Below, piece by piece: positions 43,482 through 62,065 of a stretch of 64,000 nt of DNA. The translations under genes were made by a program, and so were the position numbers. How positions within the stretch are numbered: position 1 is the first letter of the stretch; each line of letters begins with the position of its first letter. The DNA lies in assembly GCA_041305385.1 (NCBI GenBank), contig JBFYLO010000046.1, positions 491 to 64,490 on the forward strand, written 5' to 3'. The notes beneath the pieces were generated by a model. The model saw only the letters and a list, made by a program, of their open reading frames with translations, had not been told where the DNA came from and did no database searches. Source of the stretch: Candidatus Micrarchaeota archaeon. Its GTDB lineage: Archaea; Micrarchaeota; Micrarchaeia; Burarchaeales; JAKAKT01.

Positions 43482-43489
43482 AAAAACGC

Positions 43490-44230
43490 CTAGAGCCTTT
43501 TTTTGAAAAGCCCGATGAACCGCTGGGCGAGTTCAGCTGCCGCATAGGGCACCACTGCGCCCTGCTCCTTCTTTATCCGCCTGACTTCGGGCTCGAACTT
43601 CTTCCTCTGCGACATCGTTTTTGAGCTCGAGTGCAGCCTCAAATCCGCGAGCACAATCCCGGGGAGATACTCGATTCTACAACGCTTCGATACCCTCACA
43701 AGGAAGTCATAATCCATGGCGAAGTTGAACCGCTCATCTATAAAGCCGACTTTTTCGAAGACCCCCCGCCTGAAGAAAATTGTCTGCTGCGGAATCATCT
43801 GGAAGTAGTTTAAGTTTCGGAAATAACTGAAGCGGGCGGTTCTCCACACCGCAAGCTCCTTGTCGTTCTCATCTATGAACCTGCAATCCGAATAAATAAG
43901 GTCGGTTTCAGGATGTCCCCCAAGGTAATCTATGGCTTTCTTGAAGGCCCCTGGCTCATAAACATCATCTGCATTTATCCAGCCGATTAGCCCGCCAGTT
44001 GCCATCTTGAACCCAACATTCAGGGCTTGGGACTGGTTGGTCTTCTCTGCCAAAACAAATTTCACATTGGGATATTTCTTAGCTACCCTGTCCGTTCCAT
44101 CATTCGAGCCCGCATCCACAATTATGTGCTCATAGTTCGGGTAGTTTTGGTTTTTCACCGAGAGGATGGTCCTCTCGATGAACGCCCCAGATTTGTAGGA
44201 CGGAGTGATTATGCTTATCTTTTCCATCAA
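43490..44230 (-). CDS. Glycosyltransferase family 2
   Basis: ISIITPSYKSGAFIERTILSVKNQ, DAGSNDGT, DxD region. Confidence 0.8.
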   Translation of the reverse strand: MMEKISIITPSYKSGAFIERTILSVKNQNYPNYEHIIVDAGSNDGTDRVAKKYPNVKFVLAEKTNQSQALNVGFKMATGGLIGWINADDVYEPGAFKKAIDYLGGHPETDLIYSDCRFIDENDKELAVWRTARFSYFRNLNYFQMIPQQTIFFRRGVFEKVGFIDERFNFAMDYDFLVRVSKRCRIEYLPGIVLADLRLHSSSKTMSQRKKFEPEVRRIKKEQGAVVPYAAAELAQRFIGLFKKRL

Positions 44231-45117: not shown

Positions 45118-45156
45118 ATTTCCGCATGTTGCTTAGACCACAGGCAGTTTTTTATT

Positions 45157-45208
45157 GTATTGGAATTTGCTAATCCCAATGCGGCCAAATTTCTACGGAA
45201 ATTTGTCC
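45157..45208. repeat. 52-bp conserved intergenic element, copy 2 of 3
   Basis: 48/52 identical to copy 1; 40 bp upstream of the start (45117) of the minus-strand GT2 gene. Confidence 0.75.
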
Positions 45209-45490
45209 CGCCATCCCCAGGCTTAAATAAACTAGCCTATCGTTTTAATGTTTTCTCCCAAGCCCAAAGAACACAGAAAAAGCCAAGCAACAAACCCGAG
45301 CTTGAGCTGGCCCGCAGGAGCTACACCACTCCAACCTGATTTTTCGGGTTCGCCGGCGTTGCGCGCTCGGCGTTGGCGAGGCTCGGGCGCAACCCGAGTT
45401 ATCTCGTTGGTTGGGCGCATATGTCCAGGCTTATTGAGAAGTATATCCTCTCAGACAAAAAGTGGCTTCTTTTAAGAAATGCAGGAAATG

Positions 45491-46759: not shown

Positions 46760-46821
46760 GCGCTTCCCTCAAATGCATTGCATAGCAATGGCCGTTTTCT
46801 GCCCACTTTTCAAGTCCCGGC

Positions 46822-48138
46822 TCAGTGCTTGCTTAAGAACTCAGCGAACTTATCCGCGACGTACTCCCGCATCTCATCTATAAGCCCCGGGTAGACTCCG
46901 ACCCAGAACGCGCAGTTCATTATCGTGTCTGAGTTTTTAAGTTCCCCGGCAACTTCGAATTTCTCCTCAAGATACGCGGGCTGCCTCGTTAAGTTTCCCC
47001 CAAAAAGCATCCGCGTAGCTATCCCCCTGGACTCAAGATAGTCTACGATTTCCCCCCTGGTGAATCCGGCGTCCTTGCGTACAGTCAGGAGGAAGCCGAA
47101 TGGAGATGGGTCCGAGCCCTTCGTCTTTACGGGCAGGATGAGCTTGTGCTTCCACACGGAGAGCTTTTTATGGAGGAATTCCCAGTTTTCACGCCTTTTC
47201 CTTACGAACTCCGGCAATTTCTCGAGCTGTGCAAGCCCTATTGCCCCCTGGATATCGAGCATTTTCAAATTATACCCTATGTGTGAATAGATGTACTTGT
47301 GGTCGTATCCATATGGCAGGTCCCCGAGCTTCCACTTGAACCTCTTCTTGCATGTGTTGTCATTCCCAGTCGCGCACCAGCAGTCCCTACCCCAGTCCCT
47401 GAAGGACTCAACTGCTCTCTTGAGGACCGGGTTCGAGGTGAGTACTGCACCTCCTTCCCCGGTTGTAATATGGTGCGCAGGATAAAAGCTGAGAGTCGCC
47501 AGGTCCCCGAACGTCCCAACATGCTTTCCGCGAATCGTCGAACCAAGGGCGTCGCAGCAGTCCTCGACCAAATAGAGGCCATGTTCCTTTGCAATCTTCC
47601 CAATCCTCTCAGCGTCGAAAGTGTTCCCAAGAGTATGCGCAAGGACTATGGCTTTTGTCTTTTCGTCGATTGCCTCCTCGACCATCTCTGGAGTTGGGTT
47701 ATATGTATCCAGTTCAACATCAATGAATCTCGGGACCAGTCCATTCTGGAAAATCGGATTCAGCGTAGTTGGGAATCCGGCTGCAGCAGTGATTACTCTG
47801 TCCCCGTTCTTCAGCCTTTTCTCCCCGAGCAAATGGGAGGTGAGAGCTGAAACCGCAAGGAGATTTGCCGATGAGCCGGAGTTTGTCAGCGAGCAGTATT
47901 TCAGCCCAGTGAATTTCGCAAGGCCCTTGCTGAACTCCCGGCAAAACCTCCCTTCCGTAAGCCAGAATTCGAGGCAGGCGTCAACAGCACCAACTACCTC
48001 GTTTTCATCATAAACCCTGCCGGCATAATTTATCCGCGACTTTTCTGGCAAAAACGGAGGTGCGTTTTTTGCCTTAAGCGAACAATGCCTTCTAACCAGC
48101 TTTAGAATTTCCTCTTTAACTGCTGTTTCATCGGTCAT
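46822..48138 (-). CDS. DegT/DnrJ/EryC1 family PLP enzyme of the dehydrase type (RfbH/DdhC E1-like or ColD-like; catalytic Lys replaced by His)
   Basis: SFYPAHHITTGEGG where aminotransferases have SFHxxKxxxxGEGG; 438 aa matches RfbH length. Confidence 0.65.
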   Translation of the reverse strand: MTDETAVKEEILKLVRRHCSLKAKNAPPFLPEKSRINYAGRVYDENEVVGAVDACLEFWLTEGRFCREFSKGLAKFTGLKYCSLTNSGSSANLLAVSALTSHLLGEKRLKNGDRVITAAAGFPTTLNPIFQNGLVPRFIDVELDTYNPTPEMVEEAIDEKTKAIVLAHTLGNTFDAERIGKIAKEHGLYLVEDCCDALGSTIRGKHVGTFGDLATLSFYPAHHITTGEGGAVLTSNPVLKRAVESFRDWGRDCWCATGNDNTCKKRFKWKLGDLPYGYDHKYIYSHIGYNLKMLDIQGAIGLAQLEKLPEFVRKRRENWEFLHKKLSVWKHKLILPVKTKGSDPSPFGFLLTVRKDAGFTRGEIVDYLESRGIATRMLFGGNLTRQPAYLEEKFEVAGELKNSDTIMNCAFWVGVYPGLIDEMREYVADKFAEFLSKH

Positions 48139-48198
48139 GCATTTTATTTAAAACGTTGCATTTTTATGCTATCCGCAGGAAATGTATTTGGGCATGAA

Positions 48199-49089
48199 AT
48201 GCGAAAGAAGATTCTCCTCACAGGCGGAAGCGGTTTCATAGGGCGAAACATCCTAGAAGAGCTCTGCAAAAAATATGAGATATCCGCTCCAAAGCACGCG
48301 GAGCTCGAGCTTGCGGATAGCGGGGCGGTCGAGACCTACTTGAAAGTGAACGATTTTGACATAGTGATACATGCGGCAAACATCGGGGGTAACCGGAAAA
48401 CCAACGGAATCGGTGGGATATGCGAGAAAAATCTCCGCTCTTTTTTCAACATCGCCAGGTGCAAGGGACACTTCGGCAGGATGATACAACTTGGGAGCGG
48501 GGCCGAATATGATAAAGGAAGGCCGCTAAAGCTAGTAAAGGAAACTGACTTTGATTCATTTGTCCCAACCGATGAGTTCGGTTTCTACAAGTATCTCTGT
48601 TCCAAATATATAACAAAAGAGGAAGGGATAACATGCATCCGGATATTTGGCTGTTACGGGAAATATGAGGATTACGAAGTTCGCTTCATCTCAAATGCAA
48701 TATGCAAAGCGGTGTTTGGCCTCCCAATCACAATAACCAACAAAAACGTCTTCTTCAGTTACCTTTATGCGAAAGATTTGGCAAAAATCCTCGACCGGTT
48801 CATCGAAAAATCTCCGACGCAAAAATTCTACAATGTTGCGCCAGATAGTCCAGTTGATTTGCTTTCAATAGCGAAAAAAGTCATCCAGGTTTCTGGCAAA
48901 AACCTAAAAATAATCCTGAAAAACGAGGGCCTTGGCCCGGAATATAGCGCTGACAACTCATTGCTCAGGAAGGAACTGCCCCATTTCAAGTTCACGAGCC
49001 TTGAAGACGGGGTTCAAGAGCTCTACAACTGGTATTCTCTTAACAAAGGCAAACTAGACAAACGAAAGCTCGAGGCAGACAGGTATTGA
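48199..49089 (+). CDS. NAD(P)-dependent nucleotide-sugar reductase/epimerase (short SDR; RfbJ/YerF-like 4-ketoreductase candidate)
   Basis: LTGGSGFIGRNI, YxxxK (YLCSK); start taken at MRKKILLTGG. Confidence 0.65.
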   Translation: MRKKILLTGGSGFIGRNILEELCKKYEISAPKHAELELADSGAVETYLKVNDFDIVIHAANIGGNRKTNGIGGICEKNLRSFFNIARCKGHFGRMIQLGSGAEYDKGRPLKLVKETDFDSFVPTDEFGFYKYLCSKYITKEEGITCIRIFGCYGKYEDYEVRFISNAICKAVFGLPITITNKNVFFSYLYAKDLAKILDRFIEKSPTQKFYNVAPDSPVDLLSIAKKVIQVSGKNLKIILKNEGLGPEYSADNSLLRKELPHFKFTSLEDGVQELYNWYSLNKGKLDKRKLEADRY

Positions 49090-49099
49090 GCCAGTGGCC

Positions 49100-49609
49100 C
49101 TATTTCTTCTTAACTAGCTTTAGTACCTCTTTCATCCACGGGCCCATGTCCTTAAAGTGCGGCGAGGTTATTATGTTCCCGTCGACTACGACTGGAGCGT
49201 CTATATATTCAGCACCGCTATTTATGAGGTCATCCTTGCATCCCTTATAACACGTCGCCTTCTTTCCTCGCATTATCCCTGCGGATATAAGCACCCATGG
49301 CCCATGGCACACGGCTGCAACAATCCTCTTTTTCTCGTACATTTTTTTGACAAACTCAAGGACTTCAGGAATTTGCCTCACTCTGTCAGGAGCCTCAAGG
49401 CCCCCAGGGATAACCACCAAATCATATCCATCTGCAGTGAGGTCCTTTGTGTCGATTGTCGCCTTGATTGTGACGCCATGCTTTCCTCTGACCTCTAACT
49501 TGTCTTTTGTCGCTACATCTACGGTGAACCCCTCTTCAAGGAGGCGGTAGTATGGGTATACGAGTTCAGAATCCTCAAATCCCGGGCCAGTTATAATGAC
49601 AGCTTTCAT
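49100..49609 (-). CDS. DJ-1/PfpI family protein (intracellular protease I-like)
   Basis: Conserved nucleophile elbow AAVCHGP and VIPGG motif; 169 aa. Confidence 0.8.
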   Translation of the reverse strand: MKAVIITGPGFEDSELVYPYYRLLEEGFTVDVATKDKLEVRGKHGVTIKATIDTKDLTADGYDLVVIPGGLEAPDRVRQIPEVLEFVKKMYEKKRIVAAVCHGPWVLISAGIMRGKKATCYKGCKDDLINSGAEYIDAPVVVDGNIITSPHFKDMGPWMKEVLKLVKKK

Positions 49610-49613
49610 ATGT

Positions 49614-50663
49614 TCACCTCTTCAATTCCTTAATCCCTGTTAATGCAGCTATTTCAGCGAATCCCGCTAGGTCAGCATCAGTGACTGGGATTCCCGTTTT
49701 CAAGCGCTCGGCGAATGCTTTTTTTTCAGGATCGTTCGCAACCATTACGGGCTTTGCAGTGTCAACCGGTTCCAAGGCACGCAACTCATCCATAAGCGCC
49801 TGCATCCTTTTCTTGAATGTCTTTTGGTTCTCAAACCTGGATATATCCATCGCCATGACGAAATGCCCAAGCTTTCTCCTCCTGCTGATGTCGTCAGAAT
49901 AAAGCTTCTCAACATGCGGCCCATACGCCATCCCTGTGAGAATGCTTGAGAGAACTTCAACAACAAGCCCTAACCCATATCCCTTATACCCCCCAATCGG
50001 GAGAAGCCCTGCAACCTTGTCCGGGTCAAGGCATTCGTTTCCTTTAGCATCTACTGCCATCCCGGGCTCAAGGCTCTTCCCTTTTTCCTTATAAGCAAGC
50101 ACCTTGTTTCTGGGAATCACGCTTGTCGCCATATCAAGGCAGAACGGCTCCTTTTCCATACAAGGGGCTGCAAAGCATATCGGGTTTGTGCCTAGAAACG
50201 GCTTTTTGCCATTGAACGGAACCACTTGGGCCTCGGCATGCGTGGCACAAATGCCAATCATTCCCAACCTCGCAGCCCGGAGCGAATAGAGTGCAGCTGC
50301 CCCGAAGTGGGTCGAGTTCTTTATTGCAACAGCTCCAATCCCGGTCTCCTTTGCAACCTCAATTGCCTTGTCCATCCCAGCGGTTGCTGCTGGGATACCA
50401 TACCCATGGTCTGCGTCCATAACTACCGTGGCCGGCCCAGTCCTTCTGAAGTCGTATTTAGGGCTTCCGTTTATCCTTCCAGAAAGCTTTGCCTTTACGT
50501 AGTGCGGCATAAGCCGAACCCCGTGGGAATCAACCCCCCGAAGCGAAGTCTCGATGAGGCCGCCAATCAAAAGGTCCCTCTGCCCCTGTTCGACACCTAT
50601 TTTAGATAACGCCATTTCGAAAAAGTTCTTAAGCACCTTGGGATTCAAGTAAGTTTCAGCCAT
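49614..50663 (-). CDS. Ldh_2 family malate/L-sulfolactate/L-lactate dehydrogenase (ComC-like)
   Basis: GVDSHGV, HFGAAALY and overall Ldh_2 pattern; 349 aa. Confidence 0.65.
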   Translation of the reverse strand: MAETYLNPKVLKNFFEMALSKIGVEQGQRDLLIGGLIETSLRGVDSHGVRLMPHYVKAKLSGRINGSPKYDFRRTGPATVVMDADHGYGIPAATAGMDKAIEVAKETGIGAVAIKNSTHFGAAALYSLRAARLGMIGICATHAEAQVVPFNGKKPFLGTNPICFAAPCMEKEPFCLDMATSVIPRNKVLAYKEKGKSLEPGMAVDAKGNECLDPDKVAGLLPIGGYKGYGLGLVVEVLSSILTGMAYGPHVEKLYSDDISRRRKLGHFVMAMDISRFENQKTFKKRMQALMDELRALEPVDTAKPVMVANDPEKKAFAERLKTGIPVTDADLAGFAEIAALTGIKELKR

Positions 50664-50673
50664 AAATACACCA

Positions 50674-52479
50674 CTAACTCTTATCGCTTACCAGTATGTT
50701 CTTCTTCAGTTCTTCTCTGCTGAGAAGCGGGTGGAGGTCCTCAAGAGGCCTTGAGACTATCTTCCCGTTCGCATCAATCGTTGAAGAAAGGCGCGGGGTT
50801 ATCTGTTGATCAGGCGAACCAACAAGCTCGCAGACAGTCGGTTCCTTCCAAGAGAGGACCTTTTTTATTTTTTCCCTTATCTCACCGTTGTGTCGTATTC
50901 TTTCAGTCTTAAACCCATATGCCTTAGCTACTTCCAGGATGTCGGGAAGGCAGACCCCTGACGTCTTGTCACACCCTACGAAATGGGAGCCAAAGTAATT
51001 CTTTTGAGTGTTTCTAATTGTGACATACCCGCCGTTACTCAGGACGAAAATCTTTATCGGCAGTGAGTAAGTGATGATAGTTTGGAGTTCCTGGATGTTC
51101 ATTTGTATACTCCCATCCCCAGTTATGCATATCGTGCGCCTCCCGCTCCCGACGCAAGCTCCTATTGCAGAAGGCAGGTCCCAGCCCATGGCGGCCATCC
51201 CCCTGGAAGTCAAAAAGCGCTGGCCCCTTTTTATCTTGAATGCCTGGGAGCTCGTTATGTACGCAGTGGCAGAACTTGATGGGACGATTACATCATTTTC
51301 ACTAAGCAAACCTGAAAGCACATCTACGAAAACATATGGGTTCACATGCCCCTGCTCTTCGCAATATTCCGGGAGCGAAACCGGGTACTTCTTATTCCAT
51401 TCCAAGCATCTTCCAATCCACTCAGCATGTTTTTTCGTCTTGTGTGCCTTTCCATTAAGCCGATTGAGCATCTCTTCCATGAACACTTTCGCATCGCTTT
51501 TGATTTTGAGCGCAGGATGCAGGATTTTCTTGTCAAGCTCGGCTTCAGAAATGTCCACCATTGCTAGTTTTGCTCCCCTCGCGAAGCTTTCATGATTATA
51601 CCCTATCTGCTGAATGCCAAGCCTCGCCCCTATTACCAGCAGGAAATCTGAGTTCTGTATTACGAAACTTGCTGCCCTCTGCCCTCCAAGCATATTCGGG
51701 CGCCCAAAATAGAGCTCGTGGTCATCTGGCAAGAAATCTATCGCGCCCCAGGTTAAGAGAACCGGTATTCTAAGGGCTTCGACTAGCCTCTCGAATTCTG
51801 GGAGCCCATGTGCGAGCCTTACCCCATTTCCCGCAAGGAGAACCGGGCGCTTTGCGGAAAGAAGGAGGGTTATCACTTCTTCGACTTGTCTACTTAAAGC
51901 CTTCTTGCCAAGCTCTTCATTTTCTTTTTCCGGGGTGAATCCCTTAAGAGTTTTTTCATCAACTTGCGTTGCTTGTATGTCAAGAGGTATGTCAAGCCAG
52001 ACCGGTCCGGGCCTCCCGCTCGTTGCAAGGTAAAGGGCCTTCTCGAGATGATAACGTATTTTCTCAGGCTCAATGACGAGCTCGGAATATTTTGTTATTG
52101 GCCTCACGATGTCTATGATGTTCAATTCCTGGTACCCGTTTTGCCTGAGCCCTCCGTTCAATAGGTCAGATTGCTTTACCTGACCGGATACGACAATTAC
52201 GGGTATCGAGTCAACCCATGCTCCTGCAATTCCGGTTATGGCGTTTGTGCTGCCAGGTCCCGTAGTTACATTCACTAATCCAACTCCATCCGTCACTCTT
52301 GCATATCCCTCAGCAGCAATCGAGGCCGCCTGCTCATGGAGCGTGCACACATACTTCATTTTCGTTGCCTTTCCAAAAGAGTCGTTCAGGTGCATGGCGC
52401 CACCTCCGCTGAGCATGAAAACGTGCCGTATCCCGCACTCTTCCAGAAACCTTACTATGTAATCAGATACCTTCAACAT
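50674..52479 (-). CDS. Thiamine-pyrophosphate enzyme of the acetolactate-synthase superfamily (YerE/sulfoacetaldehyde acetyltransferase-like)
   Basis: Three-domain ALS architecture: N-terminal pyrimidine-binding domain, central domain, C-terminal GDGS...N TPP-binding motif (ICITGDGSIQMNIQEL...NGGY). Confidence 0.8.
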   Translation of the reverse strand: MLKVSDYIVRFLEECGIRHVFMLSGGGAMHLNDSFGKATKMKYVCTLHEQAASIAAEGYARVTDGVGLVNVTTGPGSTNAITGIAGAWVDSIPVIVVSGQVKQSDLLNGGLRQNGYQELNIIDIVRPITKYSELVIEPEKIRYHLEKALYLATSGRPGPVWLDIPLDIQATQVDEKTLKGFTPEKENEELGKKALSRQVEEVITLLLSAKRPVLLAGNGVRLAHGLPEFERLVEALRIPVLLTWGAIDFLPDDHELYFGRPNMLGGQRAASFVIQNSDFLLVIGARLGIQQIGYNHESFARGAKLAMVDISEAELDKKILHPALKIKSDAKVFMEEMLNRLNGKAHKTKKHAEWIGRCLEWNKKYPVSLPEYCEEQGHVNPYVFVDVLSGLLSENDVIVPSSSATAYITSSQAFKIKRGQRFLTSRGMAAMGWDLPSAIGACVGSGRRTICITGDGSIQMNIQELQTIITYSLPIKIFVLSNGGYVTIRNTQKNYFGSHFVGCDKTSGVCLPDILEVAKAYGFKTERIRHNGEIREKIKKVLSWKEPTVCELVGSPDQQITPRLSSTIDANGKIVSRPLEDLHPLLSREELKKNILVSDKS

Positions 52480-52489
52480 CAGTTCGCCC

Positions 52490-55087
52490 CTATTCTTCAG
52501 GCAGCAAGTCTATCATCATATTCTTCTTCAGTTCATCTCGATTGAGGAACGGGAACATGTCTTCAAGCGGTTTCGAAACAAGGGTTCCGTCGGGCCGCAC
52601 GGCTGAGACAAGGCGTGGTTCTATCTCCTGCTCTTTGCTGACTTCAATGAAGCAGGCGAAAGCACCTTCACTTCTGAATAGTCCTGCCATCAGTTTGTCT
52701 AGCTCTGCGTCATTTTTTATGCGCAACGTCTTGAGCCCAAAAGCCGAGCATATCTTCTCGAGATTCGGGAATCCCTTCCCGCTTTCATCATCTGCGCCAA
52801 ATATCCTGTTCTTGAAATACGCCTTCTGTGCCTTCCTCACAGTGGAATGCCCGTGGTTGTCAAGAATGAAAATCTTTGCCGGAATCCTATACTTTACAAT
52901 CGTCGCAAGGTCTGAGAGGCCCGCGATAAGGCCGCCATCTCCACACACTGCAATTATGTTGTGTTCCTTGTCTGCTGCATACGCCCCTATTGCTCCAGAG
53001 ACGCCAAACCCTGGAACAGGGAGCCCGGAGAACGTGATTACTTTTTGGCATTTTTTGAGCGTTAGCGCCTGCACAACTACATTCAGACCCATGCCCCGGT
53101 CAGCAACAATCACGTCTCCCTCCTTCGCAAGTTCAGAAAGTTTTTCGATGAAATGATAAACGTCTACGAATTCGTCGCTTTTTCTCAGCCTAGCTTCTAC
53201 AAGATATTTCTTCTTCCACTCCCTGCACGTTCCCATCCATGTAGAGCAATCTGGGAGCTTCTCGTTTGCGAGTTGCCGCTCGAGTTCCGCTATGAAATCC
53301 TTTGCGTCAGCGACAATCGGAAGCTCGGGAGAGATAGTGAATTTCTTAACCTCTTCTGGGTCAATGTCAACCACAACCTTCTTTGCCTCCCTTGCGAAGG
53401 CATCGTGCTTGCACCCTATCTCCTGCATGGACAATCTGCTTCCTATCACTATCAGAAGGTCGGAATTCTGCACTGCGAAGTTGGCTGAGCGGTTGCCAAA
53501 CGAACCGAACACCCCGAGGAACTGGCGGTGCCCGGTTTCGATAAGGTCCTTTCCGTTAATGCTTACAACAATCGGGACTTTGAGTTTGCCAATGATTGTC
53601 CTCAGCTCTTTTTCAGCACTAGAAAGCCTTATTCCATGTCCAGCTATAATAAGGGGCCTTTTCGCGCCTTTCAGTAATTCGACCGTGCGGGCAACGTTTC
53701 TAGCGAGCCTCGCCCGAGCGAAGTCATTATCCTCCAGCGTCTCTCCTGGAGCAAATGCCCGCAGTTCATCCTCATCAATCACCCTGCTTTGTATGTCAAG
53801 AGGTATGTCAAGCCAGACCGGTCCGGGCCTCCCGCTCGTTGCAAGGTAAAGGGCCTTCTCGAGATGATAACGTATCTCTTCCGAGTTATCGACACGGGCA
53901 GCGTACTTTGTTATTGGTTTTACAAGCGAGATTGTGTCGAGTTCGCTTATGCCAACCTGCCGCAGCCCAGTGCCGCAGGCTGTTTCAGTAGATTTTGCCT
54001 GGCCCGATATGATAAGGCCGGGGACTGAGCTCACCCATAAGCTAGCAATTCCGCTTATCGTGTTTGCTGCTGAAGCGCCTGCCGCAACTACAGCTACTCC
54101 GGGCCTCCCGCTGACCCGAGAATAGGCGCCGAGAGCCATCACAGTATTCCTCTCGTCGTGAAGGAACACATACCGTATTTGTTCACTCTTGCCAACTGCA
54201 TCAAGCAGGTGAAGATTCGCCGGTCCCGGAGCCAAAAAGAACCCACCTAAACCTTTCCTCTCAAGGTACGAAACGATATAATCAGAAAGCCTAATCATCG
54301 TATCCCGCTTCTTTATGATTAGAAGTTCGACTTCCCCGCTCGCTTTGACGTTTTCCCGGTCTATTCCCTCAAGGTCAATAGTATCCCCGACAGTTGCAAT
54401 TGGTTTTCCCCCATGGCTGTTGATTCCTCCCGAAAGAAGGCTGATTGCATCCGCCTGAAGCCCCCGAAACGCCCTTCGGAACTCATTTGGTCCACTGTAG
54501 CGGGCTATGCGGATGCTGCAGCTCCCGAATTTTTTCATCGTGTTGTAATAAGCGTCGGAACCCTCAAGCGTTATGTAATTGTAGTTCTGGAGATTAATCG
54601 AGTAGTGCTCCTTGCTTTCATATGGCATTCCCGCTCTGCCGTGTGCGTCCTTGAAACGGACAAGGTCTCGCTTATTCACCGGGCTCTCTATTTCCATCAC
54701 GTAAATTCCGCCCTCAGATTTCGCAGTTGTACAATGAAAGACGCCTTTGTCTATCCTCAGTCCATCCCCTGCCGAGAGCTTGAACTCACCATTAAGTGAA
54801 GAGCAGACCGCCTCGCCGGCAATCAAAACAAGCGAGGTCTTTTTGTTTGGGTGGCAATGAAGGGAGGTCTGGAATCCTTTTTTTATGTATAATATCCAAA
54901 CGGCTACCCCCTTATTTACGAAAATCAAATATTCGTGGCCCCAGGGCTTGCGGACAACCACTCTTGAGTAATCAAAGAAGTCGTCAGCCTGGGTTGAGGG
55001 GTCAACATTAATGGCGCTCAGGGTCTTAATGTCAGACTCGCTGCGCTCAATCCGTCTTATCATATGCACCCATTGTTTTTTCAGCAT
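52490..55087 (-). CDS. Fusion protein: N-terminal cupin (sugar 3,4-ketoisomerase/MPI-like, ~260 aa) plus C-terminal ALS-like TPP enzyme (~600 aa)
   Basis: WGHEYLIF...SLHCHPNKKTSLVLIAGEA cupin metal-site motif; then full ALS fold with GDGG TPP motif (IIAVCGDGGLIAGL); paralogous to the adjacent TPP gene. Confidence 0.7.
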   Translation of the reverse strand: MLKKQWVHMIRRIERSESDIKTLSAINVDPSTQADDFFDYSRVVVRKPWGHEYLIFVNKGVAVWILYIKKGFQTSLHCHPNKKTSLVLIAGEAVCSSLNGEFKLSAGDGLRIDKGVFHCTTAKSEGGIYVMEIESPVNKRDLVRFKDAHGRAGMPYESKEHYSINLQNYNYITLEGSDAYYNTMKKFGSCSIRIARYSGPNEFRRAFRGLQADAISLLSGGINSHGGKPIATVGDTIDLEGIDRENVKASGEVELLIIKKRDTMIRLSDYIVSYLERKGLGGFFLAPGPANLHLLDAVGKSEQIRYVFLHDERNTVMALGAYSRVSGRPGVAVVAAGASAANTISGIASLWVSSVPGLIISGQAKSTETACGTGLRQVGISELDTISLVKPITKYAARVDNSEEIRYHLEKALYLATSGRPGPVWLDIPLDIQSRVIDEDELRAFAPGETLEDNDFARARLARNVARTVELLKGAKRPLIIAGHGIRLSSAEKELRTIIGKLKVPIVVSINGKDLIETGHRQFLGVFGSFGNRSANFAVQNSDLLIVIGSRLSMQEIGCKHDAFAREAKKVVVDIDPEEVKKFTISPELPIVADAKDFIAELERQLANEKLPDCSTWMGTCREWKKKYLVEARLRKSDEFVDVYHFIEKLSELAKEGDVIVADRGMGLNVVVQALTLKKCQKVITFSGLPVPGFGVSGAIGAYAADKEHNIIAVCGDGGLIAGLSDLATIVKYRIPAKIFILDNHGHSTVRKAQKAYFKNRIFGADDESGKGFPNLEKICSAFGLKTLRIKNDAELDKLMAGLFRSEGAFACFIEVSKEQEIEPRLVSAVRPDGTLVSKPLEDMFPFLNRDELKKNMMIDLLPEE

Positions 55088-55132
55088 AAATGGTTAAAAA
55101 TGCGAGGGCTCCAAAATTCCCGCGGGGCCCTT

Positions 55133-55762
55133 ATGCAGTTTAGAGCTGTTATTTTCGATTTTGATGGCACGGTTGTCCAGAGCGAGGGAATTCATTTTCG
55201 CCTCTTTCGGAAAACCCTCGCAAAGACAGGGGTAAAACTTACAAGAAAAAAATATTACACTGAGCTAATAGGCACTGGGACCGCAAGCATAATCGCTAAG
55301 TCAGTAGCCGATGCTGGAAAGGAATGTGACATCAATGCACTCGCTGAGCAGAAGCTTTCCGCTTATAGGGCGTACGTTTTCAGAAATAGCCTTCGGACAA
55401 CGCCAGGCCTTCGGACATTTCTTAAGCGCCTGAAGAAAAAAGGGATAAAAACCGCGATAGCGAGCAGCGGAAACAAGGAGACGATGTCTGAGCTCCTAAC
55501 GAGATTGAATCTAGACGCTTGGTTTTGCGTTTTAGTCGGCAGCCAAGACGTAAAGAACCGTAAACCAGATCCAGAAGTGTTCCTCAAGGCAGCAGAGAGG
55601 CTCGGAGTCAAGCCAGAAGAGTGCATAGTCATAGAGGATGCGCCACTAGGCATTGAAGCTGGGAGGCGTGCTGGGATGAGGGTAATACAATTAGAATCAA
55701 AACTCATACCGAAAGTCAACGGTTTTGAGTCCATAAAACGCTTCAGCGACCTTAAGATTTGA
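55133..55762 (+). CDS. HAD-superfamily hydrolase, subfamily IA (beta-phosphoglucomutase/phosphatase-like)
   Basis: VIFDFDGTV motif I, S/T motif II, K and EDAPLGIEAGRRAG motif IV. Confidence 0.65.
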   Translation: MQFRAVIFDFDGTVVQSEGIHFRLFRKTLAKTGVKLTRKKYYTELIGTGTASIIAKSVADAGKECDINALAEQKLSAYRAYVFRNSLRTTPGLRTFLKRLKKKGIKTAIASSGNKETMSELLTRLNLDAWFCVLVGSQDVKNRKPDPEVFLKAAERLGVKPEECIVIEDAPLGIEAGRRAGMRVIQLESKLIPKVNGFESIKRFSDLKI

Positions 55763-55789
55763 GTTAGGCGAAGGCTGTGCCCTGCCCCG

Positions 55790-56782
55790 TTATTCGCCTT
55801 TTTGCATAACGTTCTTTTTGATAAAAGAAACATACCACGGTATCGTTTCCTTCAAGCCTTTCTCTATAGGGTACTTCGCTTCCCATCCGAGCAGTTTTTT
55901 CGCCTTCTCGCTTGAGAGGTATTGGTTCTTTATTTCCCCTCCCGCCTCGTTCAGTATCACGGGCTTCAAGTCCGACTTCATCCCCTTGAGTATCTTCTGG
56001 ACGAGCTCAAGCACAGTGATCCTGTTCGCCGTGCTAAAGTTGAATGCCTGCCCAAGGACCTCTTTTCGCCCCATGTTCTCGGCTAGCCTGATGTATGCGT
56101 CCGCGGCATCCCTAACAAAAAAGTAGTCCCTTATGTAAGTCCCATCGCTCCTAATCACCGGCTTCTCGCCCAGGAGGACGGACTTGATAGTCCCCGGAAT
56201 TATTCGGTTGAAGTTCAAGTCCCCTGGCCCATAAAGGTTCCCGCATCTCGTGATGCAGACTGGGAGCCCGTAAGTATAATAGTAAGACTGCGCTATCAGG
56301 TCTGCGCAGCTTTTTGAGACGTCATATGGGTGCCTCCCATGCAATGGCGCTTCCTCAGTGTAGGGAAGCTTATCCTGGTCCCCATAGGCCTTGTCTGATG
56401 ATGCGAACACGACCTTCTTTACGAGCTTCGAGTTCCTCGCAGCTTCCATTACGTTCCAAGTTCCCTCAATGTTCGCCTTGAACGTTGCAACCGGGGAGCG
56501 ATTCGCTGCGCCAACTATTGCCTGCGCCCCAAGATGAAACACAGTTTCAATCTCGTACTCGTTCATCGCTCTCTCGACTGTCCAGTAGTCCTCAAAGTCT
56601 CCCCTGACGATTCTCGTTTTCTTGTAATCCCCCGTCTCAAACAACATTGACTCTGGGACAAGGTCCCTCATTATTATTGTTGTGTTGGCGCCTTTTGACG
56701 CAAGCTCGCCAACTACCCATGAACCCAAAAACCCGGAAGCCCCGGTCACAAGAACGTTTTTCTCGAGCCAGAATCCCTTCAT
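55790..56782 (-). CDS. rfbG: CDP-glucose 4,6-dehydratase (RfbG/DdhB-like)
   Basis: [16 protein letters not shown] catalytic motif, ~330 aa; 4-nt ATGA overlap with the rfbF-like gene. Confidence 0.65.
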
Positions 56783-57567
56783 TTCCACACCTTCCAGGGG
56801 GTCTTCCCCTCGTCCCACATCTTGTTAAGGTCGAGATAGTCTTTGTAAGTGTCCATGCCGAACCAGAATCCCCCGTGCTTTAGCATCGAGAACTGCCTAG
56901 CTTTAACGAGCTTCTCAAATGGTTCGGACTCCATGATGCAGGACTCATCGCCCGAAATGTAATCAAAGAAATCCTTCTTGAAGCAGTAGAATCCGCCATT
57001 CACATAATCCTCGAGCACGGGTTTCTCGACAAATTCCCTCACGATTCCGCTCTCGCCCTCCCGCACCATTCCCCACTTCGAGTGCGGGTGGACCGCAGTC
57101 ATTGTACCAATCCGTTTCTTCTTTTCGTGAAAGTCGAGAATTTTTTTTATGTTAACATCCGAGAGCCCATCCCCGTAGGTGAGCATGAACTCATCCCCAT
57201 CTATGTATCGTTCGATTCTCTTGACCCGGGCGCCAGTCATTGCCTTGAGCCCGGTTTCTACGAATGTTATTGTCCAGTCCTCCTCGTTCCCTCTGCGATG
57301 CACGATGTCGCTCTTCCTGTCCCGGAGCCTTATGGAAAAGTCATTGTGCATGAGCTCGTGAGTTAAGAAAAATTGTTTTATTGCGTCGCCCCTGTACCCG
57401 AGGCACAGGACGAACTCGTTGAACCCGTAGTGTGAATAAATTTTCATTATGTGCCAGAGGACAGGCATCCCACCAATTGTGACCATCGGCTTCGGCTTGA
57501 ACTCTGTCTCCTCTTTCAGCCTGGTCCCTTCGCCACCGCACAGTATTACTACCTTGGGATTTCCCAT
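56779..57567 (-). CDS. rfbF: Glucose-1-phosphate cytidylyltransferase (RfbF/DdhA-like)
   Basis: [26 protein letters not shown]...H signature of RfbF; 262 aa. Confidence 0.75.
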
Positions 57568-57628
57568 TGACTCCCCCCAGATTTCTTTCCCCGCAACACC
57601 TTAAGTAAGTTTCGCTTGAGTTGCGTTA

Positions 57629-57757
57629 GGGCGTTGACAAATACAATGCGCCATGGCACGGTGGGAAACGCCCGGGCGTTTCCCAGTCGGCCTCGGGGCC
57701 GACCAAGCGCCCCGAGGCGCTTGCCGTCGAATGCCGATGGCGCATTATTCAACGCCC
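57629..57757. other. 129-nt nested inverted-repeat element (outer ~25-bp imperfect stem enclosing two perfect palindromic hairpins)
   Basis: Outer arms GGGCGTTGACAAATACAATGCGCCATGGC / GCCGATGGCGCATTATTCAACGCCC; inner GGGAAACGCCCGGGCGTTTCCC (57663-57684, perfect 22-nt palindrome) and GCCTCGGGGC-N9-GCCCCGAGGC (57690-57718). Confidence 0.55.
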
Positions 57758-57874
57758 TATTGCTTCATACACCATACCAACTGACAAATGGCGTTTTGCA
57801 CTCGAGTCTGGGAATTCGAACCGATTCTCTCGAGAGGCCACGAGCCGTGAGGTGGAAAAGCCACTGCAGCGCGC

Positions 57875-59089
57875 TTAATATTGCGTCAAACCGTATCCCG
57901 TTGTGTGTGGGGTCTTAAGGGCTTTCACCAGGCTCGCGAGAAGCAGGTAGGGGGCGAGGAAAAGGGGCAGGAGGAAGAACAGACCGAGAATCTTAAGCAA
58001 ATGCAGGGGAAGGCTTTCGTTGTCGGCAATCAGCAAGAGATGTCCGTCATCAACCTCCATATACGCTTTCTTCGGAGCAATCGAAGTCAGCGTCGCAGCA
58101 AGCCCAGAAGTCACGTTGGTTAAAACAACCCTCTTCCTGAAAAGCGCCGGCAGGCCCCTGAGAGCCAGGCCCGGCCCTTTCCCAGAATAATCGACCCTCA
58201 GGAAGCTCCCGGCAAGCTCATTTTCCTGAACAACGAAGCTCGCGAATCCACTCTCAAGGTGTTTCTTGGATTCCTTTCCAATGGTGAACAGCAGGGTGAC
58301 CTTCAGGAGCCCCAGGAAAGTTTTCCTTCCGTAACCTGGGAAAAAGAGGAGCAGCATCGGAAGCGAAAGAGCTACTGTCCCCAGGAACCGGAAGAATGCT
58401 TTCGGAACCCCAGTTATGTGCGCAGTGTTCGTCGTGTATAGCCAGTACTTGTCGAACTTTCTGTAAGTAATCTCCGAAGAATGCTGGTAATAGCGCCTGA
58501 CGATGTAAGACCGCTCCTTTATCCTCTCACTGTACTCGCAGTCGTCCGCCCCATAATAAAGAGGCTTATAGCAGAGCCCGTATCTCCTGATGAGTTCGGA
58601 TGAATAAAGCTGATAATGGAATCCCGCCCCCTGGGAAGTCTTGTATCCTTGCTCGTCTATCTGTGGCTTTTCCCCATCCGCCTCATTGATGGAGCCTACA
58701 AGCCCGCGCTCCTTGTTCTTCATCAGCTCCTCCACAAGGTCCTTGTCATAGGGAAGGCAGTCTACATCCGTTAATATCATGTATCTGTAGCCGTTCTCCA
58801 AAGCATACCTCTGCCCGGCGAATATCCCCCCCGAGCATCCGCTGTTCTCCTTTCTAACTGCAGCCACGAGCCCGAACCCAAGTTTTTTTCCCTTCATGAA
58901 GCGGGCCACCCTTTCAACTTCCCCGCCCGGCTCCATTACCACAATCACATCAAAGGCACCCACCGTCTGCTTCGAAAGCCTCTCGAGGTGCTCGAACAGC
59001 AAAGGATATTCGTTATAGAAGGGAATCACTATCAGCAGGTCCTGCCCCTGCCTGTCGAATTCACGAACTTCTGAAAAAAGGGAAACCAT
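57875..59089 (-). CDS. Glycosyltransferase family 2-like protein with C-terminal membrane segments
   Basis: LLIVIPFYNE, DVDC/DxD-like region; hydrophobic C-terminal helices. Confidence 0.45.
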   Translation of the reverse strand: MVSLFSEVREFDRQGQDLLIVIPFYNEYPLLFEHLERLSKQTVGAFDVIVVMEPGGEVERVARFMKGKKLGFGLVAAVRKENSGCSGGIFAGQRYALENGYRYMILTDVDCLPYDKDLVEELMKNKERGLVGSINEADGEKPQIDEQGYKTSQGAGFHYQLYSSELIRRYGLCYKPLYYGADDCEYSERIKERSYIVRRYYQHSSEITYRKFDKYWLYTTNTAHITGVPKAFFRFLGTVALSLPMLLLFFPGYGRKTFLGLLKVTLLFTIGKESKKHLESGFASFVVQENELAGSFLRVDYSGKGPGLALRGLPALFRKRVVLTNVTSGLAATLTSIAPKKAYMEVDDGHLLLIADNESLPLHLLKILGLFFLLPLFLAPYLLLASLVKALKTPHTTGYGLTQY

Positions 59090-59100
59090 CCAATAACCAA

Positions 59101-59832
59101 TCAGCCCTTGTTTTTCTGGGGCGGCAGAATCCCCTCAACATGCCGGTTCGCCCGCCTGTAGGCTTCGATGGTCCCTATGTCAAGCCAGTAGTCCGGCTTG
59201 CAGACATACCCTGCGAGTTCGCCGCTTGAGGCAAGGGCTGGGAAAATCGTCTCCTCGACCCTTTTCCTCTCGAGCTTCAGCGCGCTATGCGCCCCTTGCT
59301 CCAGGATGTAATAGCCGGCATTGGCGAGGTTTGACGGGGCTTCCTCGAGCTTCGGTTTCTCTACGAACCTCTTAACAAGCCCATCGCCATAGTCCGCTAT
59401 CCCGAACCGGTTCACCTCATCGTCTGGAACCTCGAAAAGCGAGAGGGTCGCAGAGCGCTTCATCTTCTTGTGAAACGCAAACATGTCCACAGTGTCTATG
59501 TTCGAGACGACGTCCCCGTAGGCCACGAAAATCGGCCCGTGGACTGCCTTCTCAGTCAATACGATTTTCAGGTCCCCGCCGGTCTCCCATCCCAATGCAG
59601 TTACCAGTTCGACCTCGACCCCATAATCCATGTGGCTTATGTAGCTTTCAATGGTGGTCCTGGAGCGCGAGACTGCCACATAAATCTTCTTTACCTCAGG
59701 GCATTTTCTCAGGTTCTCTATGGCATAATCGAGCACAGGCTTCCCCCCGACCGGGAGAAGCGGTTTCGGGATGGCGTAGGTTATCGGCCTCATCCGTATC
59801 CCCTCTCCTGCTGCAAGCACAATCCCAATCAT
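59101..59832 (-). CDS. Sugar-1-phosphate nucleotidyltransferase (RmlA/G1P thymidylyl- or uridylyltransferase-like)
   Basis: GIVLAAGEGIRMRPIT..PKPLLPVGGKP signature; start taken at MIGIVLAAG (ATGA overlap with upstream gene). Confidence 0.7.
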   Translation of the reverse strand: MIGIVLAAGEGIRMRPITYAIPKPLLPVGGKPVLDYAIENLRKCPEVKKIYVAVSRSRTTIESYISHMDYGVEVELVTALGWETGGDLKIVLTEKAVHGPIFVAYGDVVSNIDTVDMFAFHKKMKRSATLSLFEVPDDEVNRFGIADYGDGLVKRFVEKPKLEEAPSNLANAGYYILEQGAHSALKLERKRVEETIFPALASSGELAGYVCKPDYWLDIGTIEAYRRANRHVEGILPPQKNKG

Positions 59833-60743
59833 AGAACCTCGCCCCTGAACCATTCAATCGTTCTCGCGAGCCCGTCCCGCATGTTCACCTCGGGCTCCCA
59901 ACCAACCGCCTTCTTTACCTTGCCTATGTCCGGCCTCCTCCTCTTCGGGTCATCCTGCGGAAGAGGCCCATAGACAACTTTCGAACTGCTCTTGCAGAGT
60001 TCCCCAATGGTTTTCGCTATCTCATTGACAGTGACCTCGTGCGGGTTGCCGAGGTTGAAGAAGTCGAATTTTATTTTTGAGAACGCGAGTTTTTCCATCC
60101 CTGCAGCCAGGTCGCTCACATAGCAAAGGCTCCTCGTTTGGCTCCCATCCCCGAACAGGGTCATGGGCTCGCCCTTCAGCGCCTGAGTTATGAGGGTCGG
60201 GACCACCCTTCCGTCATCGGTTCTCATCCTCTCGCCGTAGGTGTTGAATATGCGGACAATCACTGTTTCCACTCCGAATTTTTTATTGTAAAGATAGCAG
60301 GCGGTTTCCGCCAGCCTCTTGGACTCGTCATAGCAGGAGCGCGGGCCGATGGTGTTCACATTCCCAAAATAGGTCTCCTTCTGGGGGTGCTCTAGGGGGT
60401 CTCCGTAGATTTCAGATGTGGAGGCCTGGAGCACCCTTGCCTCGTGCTTCCTTGCGTTCTCGAGGACGTTCCTAATCCCGAACGCATTCACCTCGAGGGT
60501 CTCGAGCGGGTATCTCTGGTAGTCGATGGGCGAGGCAGGGGAAGCCATGTTGAAAACCACGTCGCACTTTATGTCGAAGGGCTTCCTCATGTCGTGCTTC
60601 TGGACCTCGATGTTCATCCCCCTTAGATTTTCCTTCTTCCCGGTTATGAAATTGTCTAGGCAGATTACCTCATGGTCCTTCGAGAGCCTCTCGCAGAGGT
60701 GGGAGCCGATGAATCCCGCCCCCCCGGTAACGAGCACTTTCAT
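59829..60743 (-). CDS. uxs: UDP-glucuronate decarboxylase (UDP-xylose synthase)
   Basis: STSEIYGDPLEHPQKETYFGNVNTIGPRSCYDESKRLAE is the hallmark UXS segment; VTGGAGFIGSHL. Confidence 0.8.
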   Translation of the reverse strand: MKVLVTGGAGFIGSHLCERLSKDHEVICLDNFITGKKENLRGMNIEVQKHDMRKPFDIKCDVVFNMASPASPIDYQRYPLETLEVNAFGIRNVLENARKHEARVLQASTSEIYGDPLEHPQKETYFGNVNTIGPRSCYDESKRLAETACYLYNKKFGVETVIVRIFNTYGERMRTDDGRVVPTLITQALKGEPMTLFGDGSQTRSLCYVSDLAAGMEKLAFSKIKFDFFNLGNPHEVTVNEIAKTIGELCKSSSKVVYGPLPQDDPKRRRPDIGKVKKAVGWEPEVNMRDGLARTIEWFRGEVL

Positions 60744-60805
60744 GTCGAAGGGAATGCAAATTCAGATTATTAACTTTTGCTACCAGCGATGATTTCTGCA
60801 GAGCC

Positions 60806-62065
60806 CTACCAGCAGACCCCTTCGTAGTTCCCGCCGCTCTTCTTCTTCAGGACTTTCCTTCCGTCAAAAACGATTTTTCCAGCATAGAGCTTCTCGTCCC
60901 GGAACTCCTTCCACTCAGTGACCACGAACACTACATCTGAGTAGGCGAGAGCCTCCGTGAGGCTTTTCGCATAGCCTATCTTGTTCCCGAATATCCCCCT
61001 GGCGTTCTCATTCGCCTCTGGGTCGTAAGCCATCACCGAAGCCCCTTCCTCGAGAAGCCTGTTGATTATCTTTATGCTCGGGGCTTCCCTCATGTCATCG
61101 CTGTCCGGCTTGAAAGCGAGCCCGAGGACCGCGATTTTTTCCCCTTTCAGGTTCATTCTCTTTTTCGCAATCTCCACGAGCCTGTAGGGCTGCCCCTCGT
61201 TCACTTCGAGCACCGAGCCAAGGAGCCTGGGTTTCACCCCATTCTCCTTGAAAAGGGAAACGATTGCCTTCACATCCTTCGGGAAGCAGCTCCCGCCGAA
61301 CCCGACCCCTGCATTCAGGAACTTCCTGTTGAGCCTGCTGTCGAGCCCCACGGCATCCATCACATCATAAACGTCTATGGAAAGCTCCTTGCACAGGTTC
61401 CCCATCTCGTTCGCGAAGCTGATTTTTGTCGCGAGCAGGGAGTTGCTCGCATATTTTATCATCTCAGCGGTTCTCCTGTTCGTCTTTATTATGGGGCACT
61501 TGAAGTGCGCATAGAGCTCCGAGACTTTATCCATCGTCCGCTCATCCTCGGCGCCTATGGCGAGCCTGTCAGGATTGAAGAAGTCGTTCACGGCCATGCC
61601 CTCCCTGAGGAACTCGGGGCTCATGGCGAGCCCGAAATCCACCCCGTCAATTTTTCCTTTCTTCTTTGCAAGCCCTGCGAGCCTGTCAGTGGTGCCCGGG
61701 ACAACCGTGCTCTTCACTACGATGGCCCGGAAGGAGTCAATGGCTGAAATGACATCAAGGAACGATTTGTCGATATAAGAAAGGTCTATGGACCCGTCAT
61801 TCCTGGACGGCGTCCCCACTGCGATGAAAATAATCTCGGCACCTGGAAGGGCTGCCCCGAGGTCAGTTGTGGCAGTCAGGTTCTTCCCCACAACATCATT
61901 CATGAGCTCCTGAAGCCCCTCCTCATAAATCGGCGGCTTCTTCCCGTTTATCATGTCAACTTTCTTTCTGTCAACATCGATGCAGGAAACATTATGGCCA
62001 AGCTTCGCGAAGCCGCAGCCCGTAATCAGTCCGACATATCCGGTCCCTACAATGCAAATTTTCAT
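60806..62065 (-). CDS. ugd: UDP-glucose 6-dehydrogenase
   Basis: MKICIVGTGYVGL NAD motif, catalytic GFGGSCFPKD, 419 aa. Confidence 0.85.
   Translation of the reverse strand: MKICIVGTGYVGLITGCGFAKLGHNVSCIDVDRKKVDMINGKKPPIYEEGLQELMNDVVGKNLTATTDLGAALPGAEIIFIAVGTPSRNDGSIDLSYIDKSFLDVISAIDSFRAIVVKSTVVPGTTDRLAGLAKKKGKIDGVDFGLAMSPEFLREGMAVNDFFNPDRLAIGAEDERTMDKVSELYAHFKCPIIKTNRRTAEMIKYASNSLLATKISFANEMGNLCKELSIDVYDVMDAVGLDSRLNRKFLNAGVGFGGSCFPKDVKAIVSLFKENGVKPRLLGSVLEVNEGQPYRLVEIAKKRMNLKGEKIAVLGLAFKPDSDDMREAPSIKIINRLLEEGASVMAYDPEANENARGIFGNKIGYAKSLTEALAYSDVVFVVTEWKEFRDEKLYAGKIVFDGRKVLKKKSGGNYEGVCW

Follow-up and report, generated by a model that had tools for sequence, protein, structure and literature searches.

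Why should a cupin be joined to the front of an enzyme that forms carbon-carbon bonds, is the joint real, and what might the cupin do there? These questions are raised by an open reading frame (ORF) of 865 uninterrupted codons at 52490..55087 (-) in a 64,000-nucleotide stretch of DNA from a Candidatus Micrarchaeota archaeon (contig JBFYLO010000046.1), which we call the window. A preliminary description, made from the letters alone, had read the ORF as an N-terminal cupin fused to a complete thiamine diphosphate (ThDP) enzyme of the YerE-like type, and had thought it sensible that a ketoisomerase should hand its product directly to such an enzyme. We found that the fusion is genuine, that it recurs in many phyla and that the cupin travels with a conserved set of genes; the ketoisomerase role is disfavoured, and a place for the cupin on the donor side of a sugar-branching reaction is proposed below.

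The domains lie in order along the frame, all on the minus strand. A cupin beta-barrel (aa 40-147, 54647..54970), delimited by profile matches, an AlphaFold2 (AF2) model, Foldseek and the alignment, is followed by the family's second beta-subdomain, a small one (aa 148-262, 54302..54646; model and alignment), which ends at a gapless junction. Then come the PYR domain (TPP_enzyme_N, aa 266-378, 53954..54292), the central domain (TPP_enzyme_M, aa 465-602, 53282..53695) and the PP domain (TPP_enzyme_C, aa 672-809, 52661..53074), each far above its Pfam cut-off. The cupin, about 255 aa long, runs straight into the complete three-domain enzyme with no linker (...LLIIKKRD-T-MIRLSDYIV). The start codon is probably M9, at position 55063, which would give a protein of 857 aa, since the residue equivalent to M9 is the first one in stand-alone homologues and in P0121, a database protein of identical sequence (857 aa); the eight-codon extension upstream of it (55063-55087) overlaps a divergent HAD ORF.

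A full-length search of sequence databases returned at least 120 protein clusters (at the 90% identity level) with the same fused architecture. These proteins measure 845-907 aa, cover 95-100% of the query and share 40-51% identity with the window protein, the identical P0121 excepted; they come from archaea, Elusimicrobia, Acidobacteria and other groups, and their database names are generic only. In an alignment of 121 fused proteins, consisting of 120 database proteins (119 of them independent of the window sequence) and the window's own, the length of the junction is invariant (IKKxD-x-x-x-(K/R)-(L/V)-SDY). AF2 modelled the whole 857-aa chain with a pLDDT of 89.5 and a pTM of 0.81, the junction included with confidence. 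Since the same gapless in-frame junction recurs in database proteins from many independent assemblies and phyla, the fusion is genuine and not a sequencing artefact, and the false join of two genes against which the preliminary description had warned is excluded.

The closest structural relative of the ThDP part is JanthE from Janthinobacterium sp. HH01 (PDB 8RPH/8RPI/8RPJ), a YerE-like ThDP carboligase that accepts ketones (PMC12188165, PMC12247030). Among PDB sequences, JanthE (8RPH) scores 356 bits against the ThDP part of the fusion, compared with 222 for the best acetolactate synthase (ALS), and 459 against 264 bits for the unfused paralogue; the top six Foldseek matches of the full-length fusion model are all JanthE chains (TM 0.93-0.95, rmsd 2.0-2.4). 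The biosynthetic ALS model TIGR00118 gave 344.6 and 384.4 bits for the two window proteins, below its cut-off of 538, other NCBIfam ALS models left both far below their cut-offs, and a branched-chain amino-acid gene context is absent around the ThDP genes. On sequence and modelled fold, both window ThDP proteins are assigned to the YerE-like enzymes, through JanthE and not through comparison with the YerE sequence itself. They share with JanthE the three-domain architecture, an extended C-terminal tail and 33% identity, whereas JanthE stands alone, lacks a cupin, has 619 aa and bears an unusual CDG motif (PMC12188165).

The neighbouring gene downstream, at 50674..52479 (-), already taken for an unfused paralogue, codes for 601 aa that are 39% identical to the ThDP part of the fusion over its whole length, with TPP_enzyme_N, _M and _C again far above their cut-offs; M264 of the fusion aligns exactly with its start methionine. 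It keeps the HEQ, GPGSTN and GDG...N motifs, with E49 as the catalytic glutamate and GDG...N482 as the ThDP-Mg motif. The fusion keeps the catalytic glutamate of the PYR domain (Glu312), where HHEQ has become HDER and GPGSTN has become GASAAN, and its ThDP-Mg motif is intact (G716-D717-G718 ... D743-N744, nt 52856-52942). Nucleotide comparison of the two tandem genes revealed a gene-conversion tract, 53772..53917 (-) in the fusion and 51956-52101 in the paralogue, whose core reaches 90% nucleotide identity (background 51%) and, at third codon positions, 87% (background 38%); the 29-aa stretch IRYHLEKALYLATSGRPGPVWLDIPLDIQ is identical in both proteins.

The identity of the N-terminal part as a cupin held up as well, even if the window protein itself falls just below the gathering score of Cupin_2 (aa 68-126, E=4.6e-5; with the domain alone, E=1.1e-5 and 25.4 bits against a cut-off of 27.2). 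It is likewise just short of the cut-off for MannoseP_isomer (PF01050; aa 45-147, 19.3-21.9 bits against 23.6), while 57 of 62 cupin homologues match Cupin_2 and 56 of 62 match MannoseP_isomer at E<=0.01. The AF2 model of residues 1-262 has a pLDDT of 93.7, Foldseek matches it to cupins with probability 1.0, and the phosphomannose isomerase (PMI) of Thermococcus (7zvy) superposes on it with an rmsd of 1.5 A over 104 residues. No member of the same 62 matches the FdtA (PF05523) or dTDP_sugar_isom (PF00908) profiles at E<=0.01, and the FdtA, QdtA and RmlC structures are absent from the top 50 Foldseek matches. Of the two resemblances proposed for the cupin, that to PMI-like cupins stands and that to nucleoside diphosphate (NDP)-sugar 3,4-ketoisomerases does not. 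A profile of the family found only weak generic cupin matches among PDB sequences, the best being cysteine dioxygenase (E=4e-4).

Both motifs singled out from the letters are present, WGHEYLIF at aa 49-56 and SLHCHPNKK at aa 75-83, but the barrel is confined to about aa 40-147 and does not fill the N-terminal 260 residues, the rest being the second beta-subdomain. The family motifs are PMI-like (KPWGxE, TSxHCHPNK and FH). Family-invariant residues in the barrel are K47, P48, W49, G50, E52, T74, S75, H77, H79, K82, F117, H118, E132, E134 and K139, and around the start of the second subdomain R144, D147, R151 and Y156; all are also 100% conserved across the 121 fused proteins. H77, H79 and H118 occupy the cupin metal positions, with K82 where the canonical metal-binding Glu would be, and this three-His arrangement looks like a metal site. 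With type II PMI (PF01050, Thermococcus 7ZVY) the window cupin shares the barrel, an (R/K)PWG ahead of it and HxH...H, but in its family the metal-binding Glu is replaced by the invariant K82, and an extra N-terminal helix and the C-terminal beta-subdomain of about 110 aa are added. The FdtA/QdtA/Tyl1a ketoisomerases and RmlC epimerases have the cupin fold and a role in NDP-sugar clusters in common with it; however, they are metal-free proteins of about 140-180 aa, whereas the window family has about 255 aa, two subdomains and the three-His site. By these features the cupin is assigned to an uncharacterised family with PMI-like motifs that is neither FdtA- nor RmlC-like. An indexed search found 208 homologues of the N-terminal 262 residues and an exhaustive one, over 1.84 billion representatives, 542 matches at E<=1e-30; for the most part they stand alone, are about 255 aa long and bear uninformative names. 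The phage collection that we searched contained no homologue of the cupin.

A genome scan found cupin carriers in 334 GTDB species genomes. We retrieved 80 loci from these carriers, nearly all of uncultured organisms (DPANN, Candidate Phyla Radiation (CPR), Elusimicrobia, Nitrospirae, Chloroflexi, Verrucomicrobia, Alphaproteobacteria and others), and surveyed a radius of 7 kb around the cupin in the 74 loci with a complete cupin ORF. A ThDP enzyme of any kind lies within this distance at 70 of the 74 loci (95%), a YerE-like one at 54 and an E1alpha/E1beta pair at 20. DJ-1/PfpI proteins are almost as constant (67 loci, 91%), followed by HAD hydrolases (40 loci, 54%) and dehydrogenases of the Ldh_2 family (15 loci). 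The cupin is fused to a ThDP enzyme at 33 loci, and two YerE-like paralogues are found at 26. The nucleotide-sugar context varies between CDP-dideoxy and UDP-amino-uronate types while the cupin family stays highly conserved; one locus (L001) carries a separate dTDP_sugar_isom gene. Long DJ-1, RfbH and Ldh_2 'fusions' in high-GC loci were set aside as over-extended ORFs.

The closest relative of the fusion (P0122, 50% identical) sits in a colinear operon of 10 genes, L089, in the order NTP-transferase (RfbF)-4,6-dehydratase (RfbG)-fusion-TPP-Ldh_2-DJ-1-HAD-RfbH-SDR-SDR, and this gene order speaks for one pathway. Beside the cupin-DJ-1-HAD set of CPR and DPANN genomes stands an E1alpha/E1beta pair in place of the YerE-like enzyme, and PhyH oxygenases co-occur with the CPR and DPANN versions of the module. 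Members of both ThDP superfamilies, YerE-like and E1alpha/beta, branch NDP-ketosugars (PMC12247030). The alpha-KADH2 enzymes (KbDH-alpha/beta, aldgamycin, avilamycin) resemble the module in this pair and in one cupin-E1alpha protein; they belong to the other ThDP superfamily, and those characterised come from actinomycete antibiotic pathways, with no reported cupin partner. At one locus (L087, 8513-14565), DJ-1 and the cupin stand with two E1alpha/E1beta pairs on a contig of 182 kb; besides an HNH gene, this contig holds numerous tiny ORFs without annotation, and it may come from a phage or from a genome that is highly streamlined.

The trio can also exist by itself. On plasmid NZ_CP060593.1 of Rouxiella badensis (10543-12263), a cupin and a DJ-1/PfpI gene are accompanied by a 148-aa HAD-like fragment that starts with a DFDGV motif, and around them lie ars genes together with genes for a LysR regulator and an MFS transporter. 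Neither a ThDP enzyme gene nor any sugar gene was found near this trio on the plasmid. Rouxiella is a cultured enterobacterium, and its trio could be a tractable model.

Two neighbour-joining trees, one built from the ThDP domains and the other from the cupin domains, agree with each other. In one clade of fused ThDP domains, where the window copy branches deepest, an unfused partner is always present as well. Other fusions, found in DPANN genomes that have only one ThDP gene, nest among the unfused enzymes, and their cupins group with stand-alone cupins of DPANN; some stand-alone cupins in turn nest inside the fused clade. Because of this nesting in both trees, the fusion of the cupin to YerE-like enzymes is judged to have arisen at least twice and fission to have occurred too. 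The exhaustive search brought up other architectures (P0290, P0321, P0373, P0313, P0336 and P0306), namely one cupin-E1alpha (E1_dh), three cupin-HAD_2, one SDR(Epimerase)-cupin and one ATP-grasp-cupin protein, the ATP-grasp partner of the last being L-amino-acid-ligase-like. Judged from the sequences, at least three independent fusions have joined cupins of this family to ThDP enzymes (two YerE-like lineages and E1alpha), and others have joined them to HAD.

Most of the fused ThDP domains have not kept all of their cofactor site. The PYR-domain catalytic Glu is retained in 120 of the 121 fused proteins, while the GDG...N(N) ThDP-Mg motif is kept in 18 only; in about 100, E-D-R, E-G-E or E-K-K replaces GDG and the Asn is lost (e.g., EDR...KS). 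Such degenerate copies make up about 85% of the fused paralogues and are found at loci L005-L048 (at L005, for example, at 10001-12595). A degenerate fused copy probably contributes only the PYR half-site to a heteromer with its intact partner, a sharing that would resemble the division of labour between E1beta and E1alpha. The window copy and its nearest relative P0122 are exceptions in that they keep GDG...DN, and for this reason both ThDP paralogues of the window may be active.

The fusion lies within a glycan operon, whose order from high to low coordinate, which for minus-strand genes means from upstream to downstream, is UDP-glucose dehydrogenase, UXS-like SDR, NTP-transferase, GT2, RfbF-like, RfbG-like, divergent HAD, fusion, paralogue, Ldh_2, PfpI/DJ-1, SDR (+ strand), RfbH and several glycosyltransferases. 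The genes for the fusion, the paralogue, Ldh_2 and DJ-1 are separated by gaps of only 4-10 bp. The Ldh_2-family 2-hydroxyacid dehydrogenase (49614..50663, -) comes nearest, among named families, to ureidoglycolate, sulfolactate and malate dehydrogenases but passes none of their cut-offs, and the DJ-1/PfpI protein (49100..49609, -) scores 176 bits with TIGR01382 (cut-off 139) and has the Cys-His elbow AAVCHGP. On the other side, the HAD-IA hydrolase of the beta-phosphoglucomutase family (55064..55762, +) is divergently transcribed and has an intact DxDGT motif; its real start is probably downstream of 55064, at M13 or M24. The extended SDR of 307 aa (48166..49089, +), orthologues of which (44-52% identical) recur in related clusters, is a candidate ketoreductase, of YerF type or a 4-reductase.

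Around this core are the genes of a CDP-sugar pathway. They code for an RfbF-like glucose-1-phosphate cytidylyltransferase (56779..57567, -; 294.8 bits against a cut-off of 300.25), an RfbG-like SDR resembling CDP-glucose 4,6-dehydratase (55790..56818, -; best match 201.8 bits, cut-off 278) and a CDP-6-deoxy-4-hexulose 3-dehydrase of the RfbH/E1 type (46822..48138, -; 669.5 bits against an NCBIfam cut-off of 423). YerE, ErwE, MMAR_2332 and MyGE are ThDP enzymes that add the acyl group of a 2-keto acid to C-4 of CDP-3,6-dideoxy-4-ketoglucose, and YerE of Yersinia pseudotuberculosis O:VI transfers acetyl from pyruvate to this sugar (PMC9306805). YerE-type clusters carry ddhA/B/C-type genes and a reductase (PMC9306805), and the window has their likeness in its RfbF/G/H-like genes and SDR, which by similarity would supply the classical YerE acceptor. 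The difference is on the donor side: in YerE-type clusters the donor comes from an aldolase or from pyruvate directly, and neither cupin, DJ-1, HAD or Ldh_2 partners nor a pair of paralogues have been described there. Upstream on the same strand (57875-62065), the UDP-glucose dehydrogenase, UXS/ArnA-like decarboxylase SDR, NTP-transferase and GT2 form a second sugar set, which suggests that a pentose or uronate is also in the glycan. Between RfbH and the glycosyltransferases, a 422-aa ORF (45491-46759) has no family match, and since it contains only one hydrophobic segment it is not an obvious polymerase or flippase.

From the observed architecture, family assignments, conserved module, repeated fusions and operon context, we infer a route in which the fusion would be a subunit of a C-4 sugar-branching carboligase, and the cupin, with DJ-1, HAD and Ldh_2, would supply or condition its co-substrate, a reading that we judge about evenly poised between right and wrong. 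The RfbF/G/H-like enzymes would convert glucose-1-phosphate into a CDP-3,6-dideoxy-4-ketohexose. The two ThDP proteins, probably as a mixed oligomer, would decarboxylate a 2-keto acid and pass its acyl group to C-4 of the CDP-ketosugar, as in YerE chemistry, and the SDR would then reduce the branch. Starting from a phosphorylated or dicarbonyl compound, the cupin and its HAD, DJ-1 and Ldh_2 partners would produce or condition the non-nucleotide donor, and the fusion would couple the cupin reaction directly to carboligation. Ldh_2 enzymes convert 2-hydroxy acids into 2-keto acids, the donors of ThDP carboligases, and this is one of four reasons for which a donor-side role of the cupin is favoured. 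The others are that the cupin fuses to HAD, implying a small phosphorylated substrate, that its invariant Lys and Arg residues suit an anionic substrate, and that the cupin-DJ-1-HAD trio can exist without sugar genes, as in Rouxiella.

Several points weigh against this proposal. Many clusters have no Ldh_2 and 46% have no detected HAD, and therefore the donor route cannot be uniform. RfbH normally needs an E3 reductase (RfbI/DdhD, ferredoxin-NADP-reductase-like), and for the window cluster (42498-62065) no gene for one was found among the window ORFs that were scanned, which are a part of the total, nor was there one among the genes listed for L089. The SDR(Epimerase)-cupin fusion would fit an NDP-sugar substrate just as well, and the SDR of the window could be a plain 4-reductase that finishes an ordinary CDP-3,6-dideoxyhexose, in which case the ThDP module would serve a separate pathway. 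Hetero-oligomerisation, finally, is suggested only by co-occurrence and by the degenerate motifs of relatives.

A glycolate route was also considered (glycolate to glyoxylate to tartronate semialdehyde to hydroxypyruvate), in which glycolate would come from DJ-1 and HAD and be turned into glyoxylate by Ldh_2, with the fused ThDP domain as a glyoxylate carboligase and the cupin as a hydroxypyruvate isomerase. It is chemically coherent and has no specific support; we did not adopt it because it cannot be applied to systems with a single ThDP enzyme or with a dead paralogue.

The alternative that survives best, and which we still regard as unlikely, is that the cupin is an NDP-ketosugar isomerase or epimerase of the 3,4-ketoisomerase or 3/5-epimerase type and prepares the acceptor for the ThDP domain to which it is fused. 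A fusion does argue for consecutive steps, the module is nearly always found within NDP-sugar clusters, one SDR(Epimerase)-cupin fusion is known, and HxH motifs serve as acid/base pairs in the metal-free FdtA and QdtA. Such a role is hard to reconcile, however, with the complete lack of FdtA, QdtA or RmlC signal in the profile and fold searches described above, with the metal-site look of H77/H79/H118, and with the conservation of the cupin while its surroundings change between CDP-dideoxy and UDP-amino-uronate types. The pairing of the cupin with DJ-1 and HAD, its fusion to HAD and the sugar-free plasmid trio of Rouxiella all make an NDP-ketosugar substrate less likely. A 3,4-ketoisomerase would, besides, be left without a substrate, since RfbH has removed O-3 and there is no 3-OH to isomerise. 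For these reasons, the hand-over from a ketoisomerase to the ThDP enzyme that had been suggested at the outset is disfavoured.

Slightly less probable still would be a cupin that acts after carboligation and tailors the branch, either by a ketol-to-aldol shift, as PMI does, or by oxidative cleavage, with DJ-1 and HAD finishing the side chain. The PMI-like motifs and fold speak for such a role. Dioxygenases for diketones, acireductone and cysteine are found among the three-His cupins, 2-oxoaldehydes are substrates of DJ-1-type glyoxalases, and PhyH oxygenases accompany the module in CPR and DPANN. However, the Rouxiella trio has neither a ThDP enzyme nor sugar genes, and the HAD protein implies a phosphorylated intermediate, whereas a branch derived from pyruvate would contain none.

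There is a small chance that the module builds a new sugar phosphate, with the ThDP enzyme acting on an aldose phosphate in the manner of transketolase or DXS, the cupin converting the ketose phosphate into an aldose phosphate, the HAD protein serving as mutase or phosphatase, and a second nucleotidyltransferase activating the product. The likeness of the cupin to PMI and the membership of HAD in the beta-phosphoglucomutase family would agree with this, and several clusters contain a second NTP-transferase, an HldE-like gene or an NTP-transferase/GHMP-kinase fusion. Yet both ThDP lineages are closest to ketone-accepting enzymes that branch sugars (PMC12247030), and in L089 the module lies between the RfbG-like and RfbH-like genes of one operon. 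Moreover, this scheme leaves DJ-1 without a role, and the window has no kinase genes.

It seems very improbable that the cupin has no catalytic activity and serves the carboligase for ligand binding or regulation, as the regulatory subunits of acetohydroxyacid synthase do. The degenerate cofactor motif of about 85% of the fused ThDP domains does suggest a scaffold-like subunit; nevertheless, nineteen polar, His, Lys, Arg or Glu positions of the cupin show 100% conservation throughout the 121 fused proteins as well as in stand-alone cupins, a pattern typical of an active site, and the cupin also exists as a gene of its own and in fusions with HAD and E1alpha. Finally, the exact alignment of M264 with the start methionine of the paralogue could be the mark of two genes joined by an assembly or sequencing error, but the same in-frame gapless junction in 120 database proteins from many assemblies and phyla, and its confident modelling by AF2, leave this practically no chance.

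Outside the glycan operon, the window, which has a GC content of about 51%, also encodes Orc1/Cdc6 (5215-6279), an archaeal-type alanyl-tRNA synthetase (32398-35028), a Hef nuclease (21841-23439) and LonB (224-1645), four genes that mark it as archaeal. Two further ORFs, at 10996-13686 (896 aa, with an N-terminal hydrophobic segment) and 9130-10470 (446 aa), have no Pfam or NCBIfam match.

Taken beyond the window, the evidence may mean that cupin, DJ-1 and HAD form, with a ThDP carboligase of either superfamily, an undescribed ancient module that extends from DPANN and CPR to Proteobacteria and makes an acyl-branched or higher-carbon sugar through a new cupin reaction, the cupin-bearing ThDP paralogue being mostly a half-dead subunit of an obligate heteromer; our confidence in this wider statement falls a little short of even. 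The ThDP chemistry is of a known kind; for the obligate partnership with cupin, DJ-1 and HAD, for the recurrent fusions and for the half-degenerate paralogue, no earlier description could be found in the searched literature. That literature held no paper linking YerE-like enzymes with a cupin or with DJ-1/PfpI; it did not take in the 2024 work of Krug et al. (Angew), reportedly an in-silico survey of more than 200 YerE-like clusters. The belief that the fusion had not been described stands to this extent, although the architecture is abundant in sequence databases under generic names.

YerE-like enzymes are in demand for the biocatalytic production of chiral tertiary alcohols, and their presence is a sign of unusual branched sugars in the cell envelope. 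A conserved and repeatedly fused partner of these enzymes implies that branched-sugar biosynthesis has a step missing from the current schemes, which consist of an aldolase, a ThDP enzyme and a reductase, and the colinear 10-gene operon L089 is a directly testable system. With the degenerate motif that most of the fused paralogues carry, this enzyme class would have its first pseudo-subunit. Lastly, the module is common in CPR and DPANN organisms, in which surface glycans are essentially uncharacterised.

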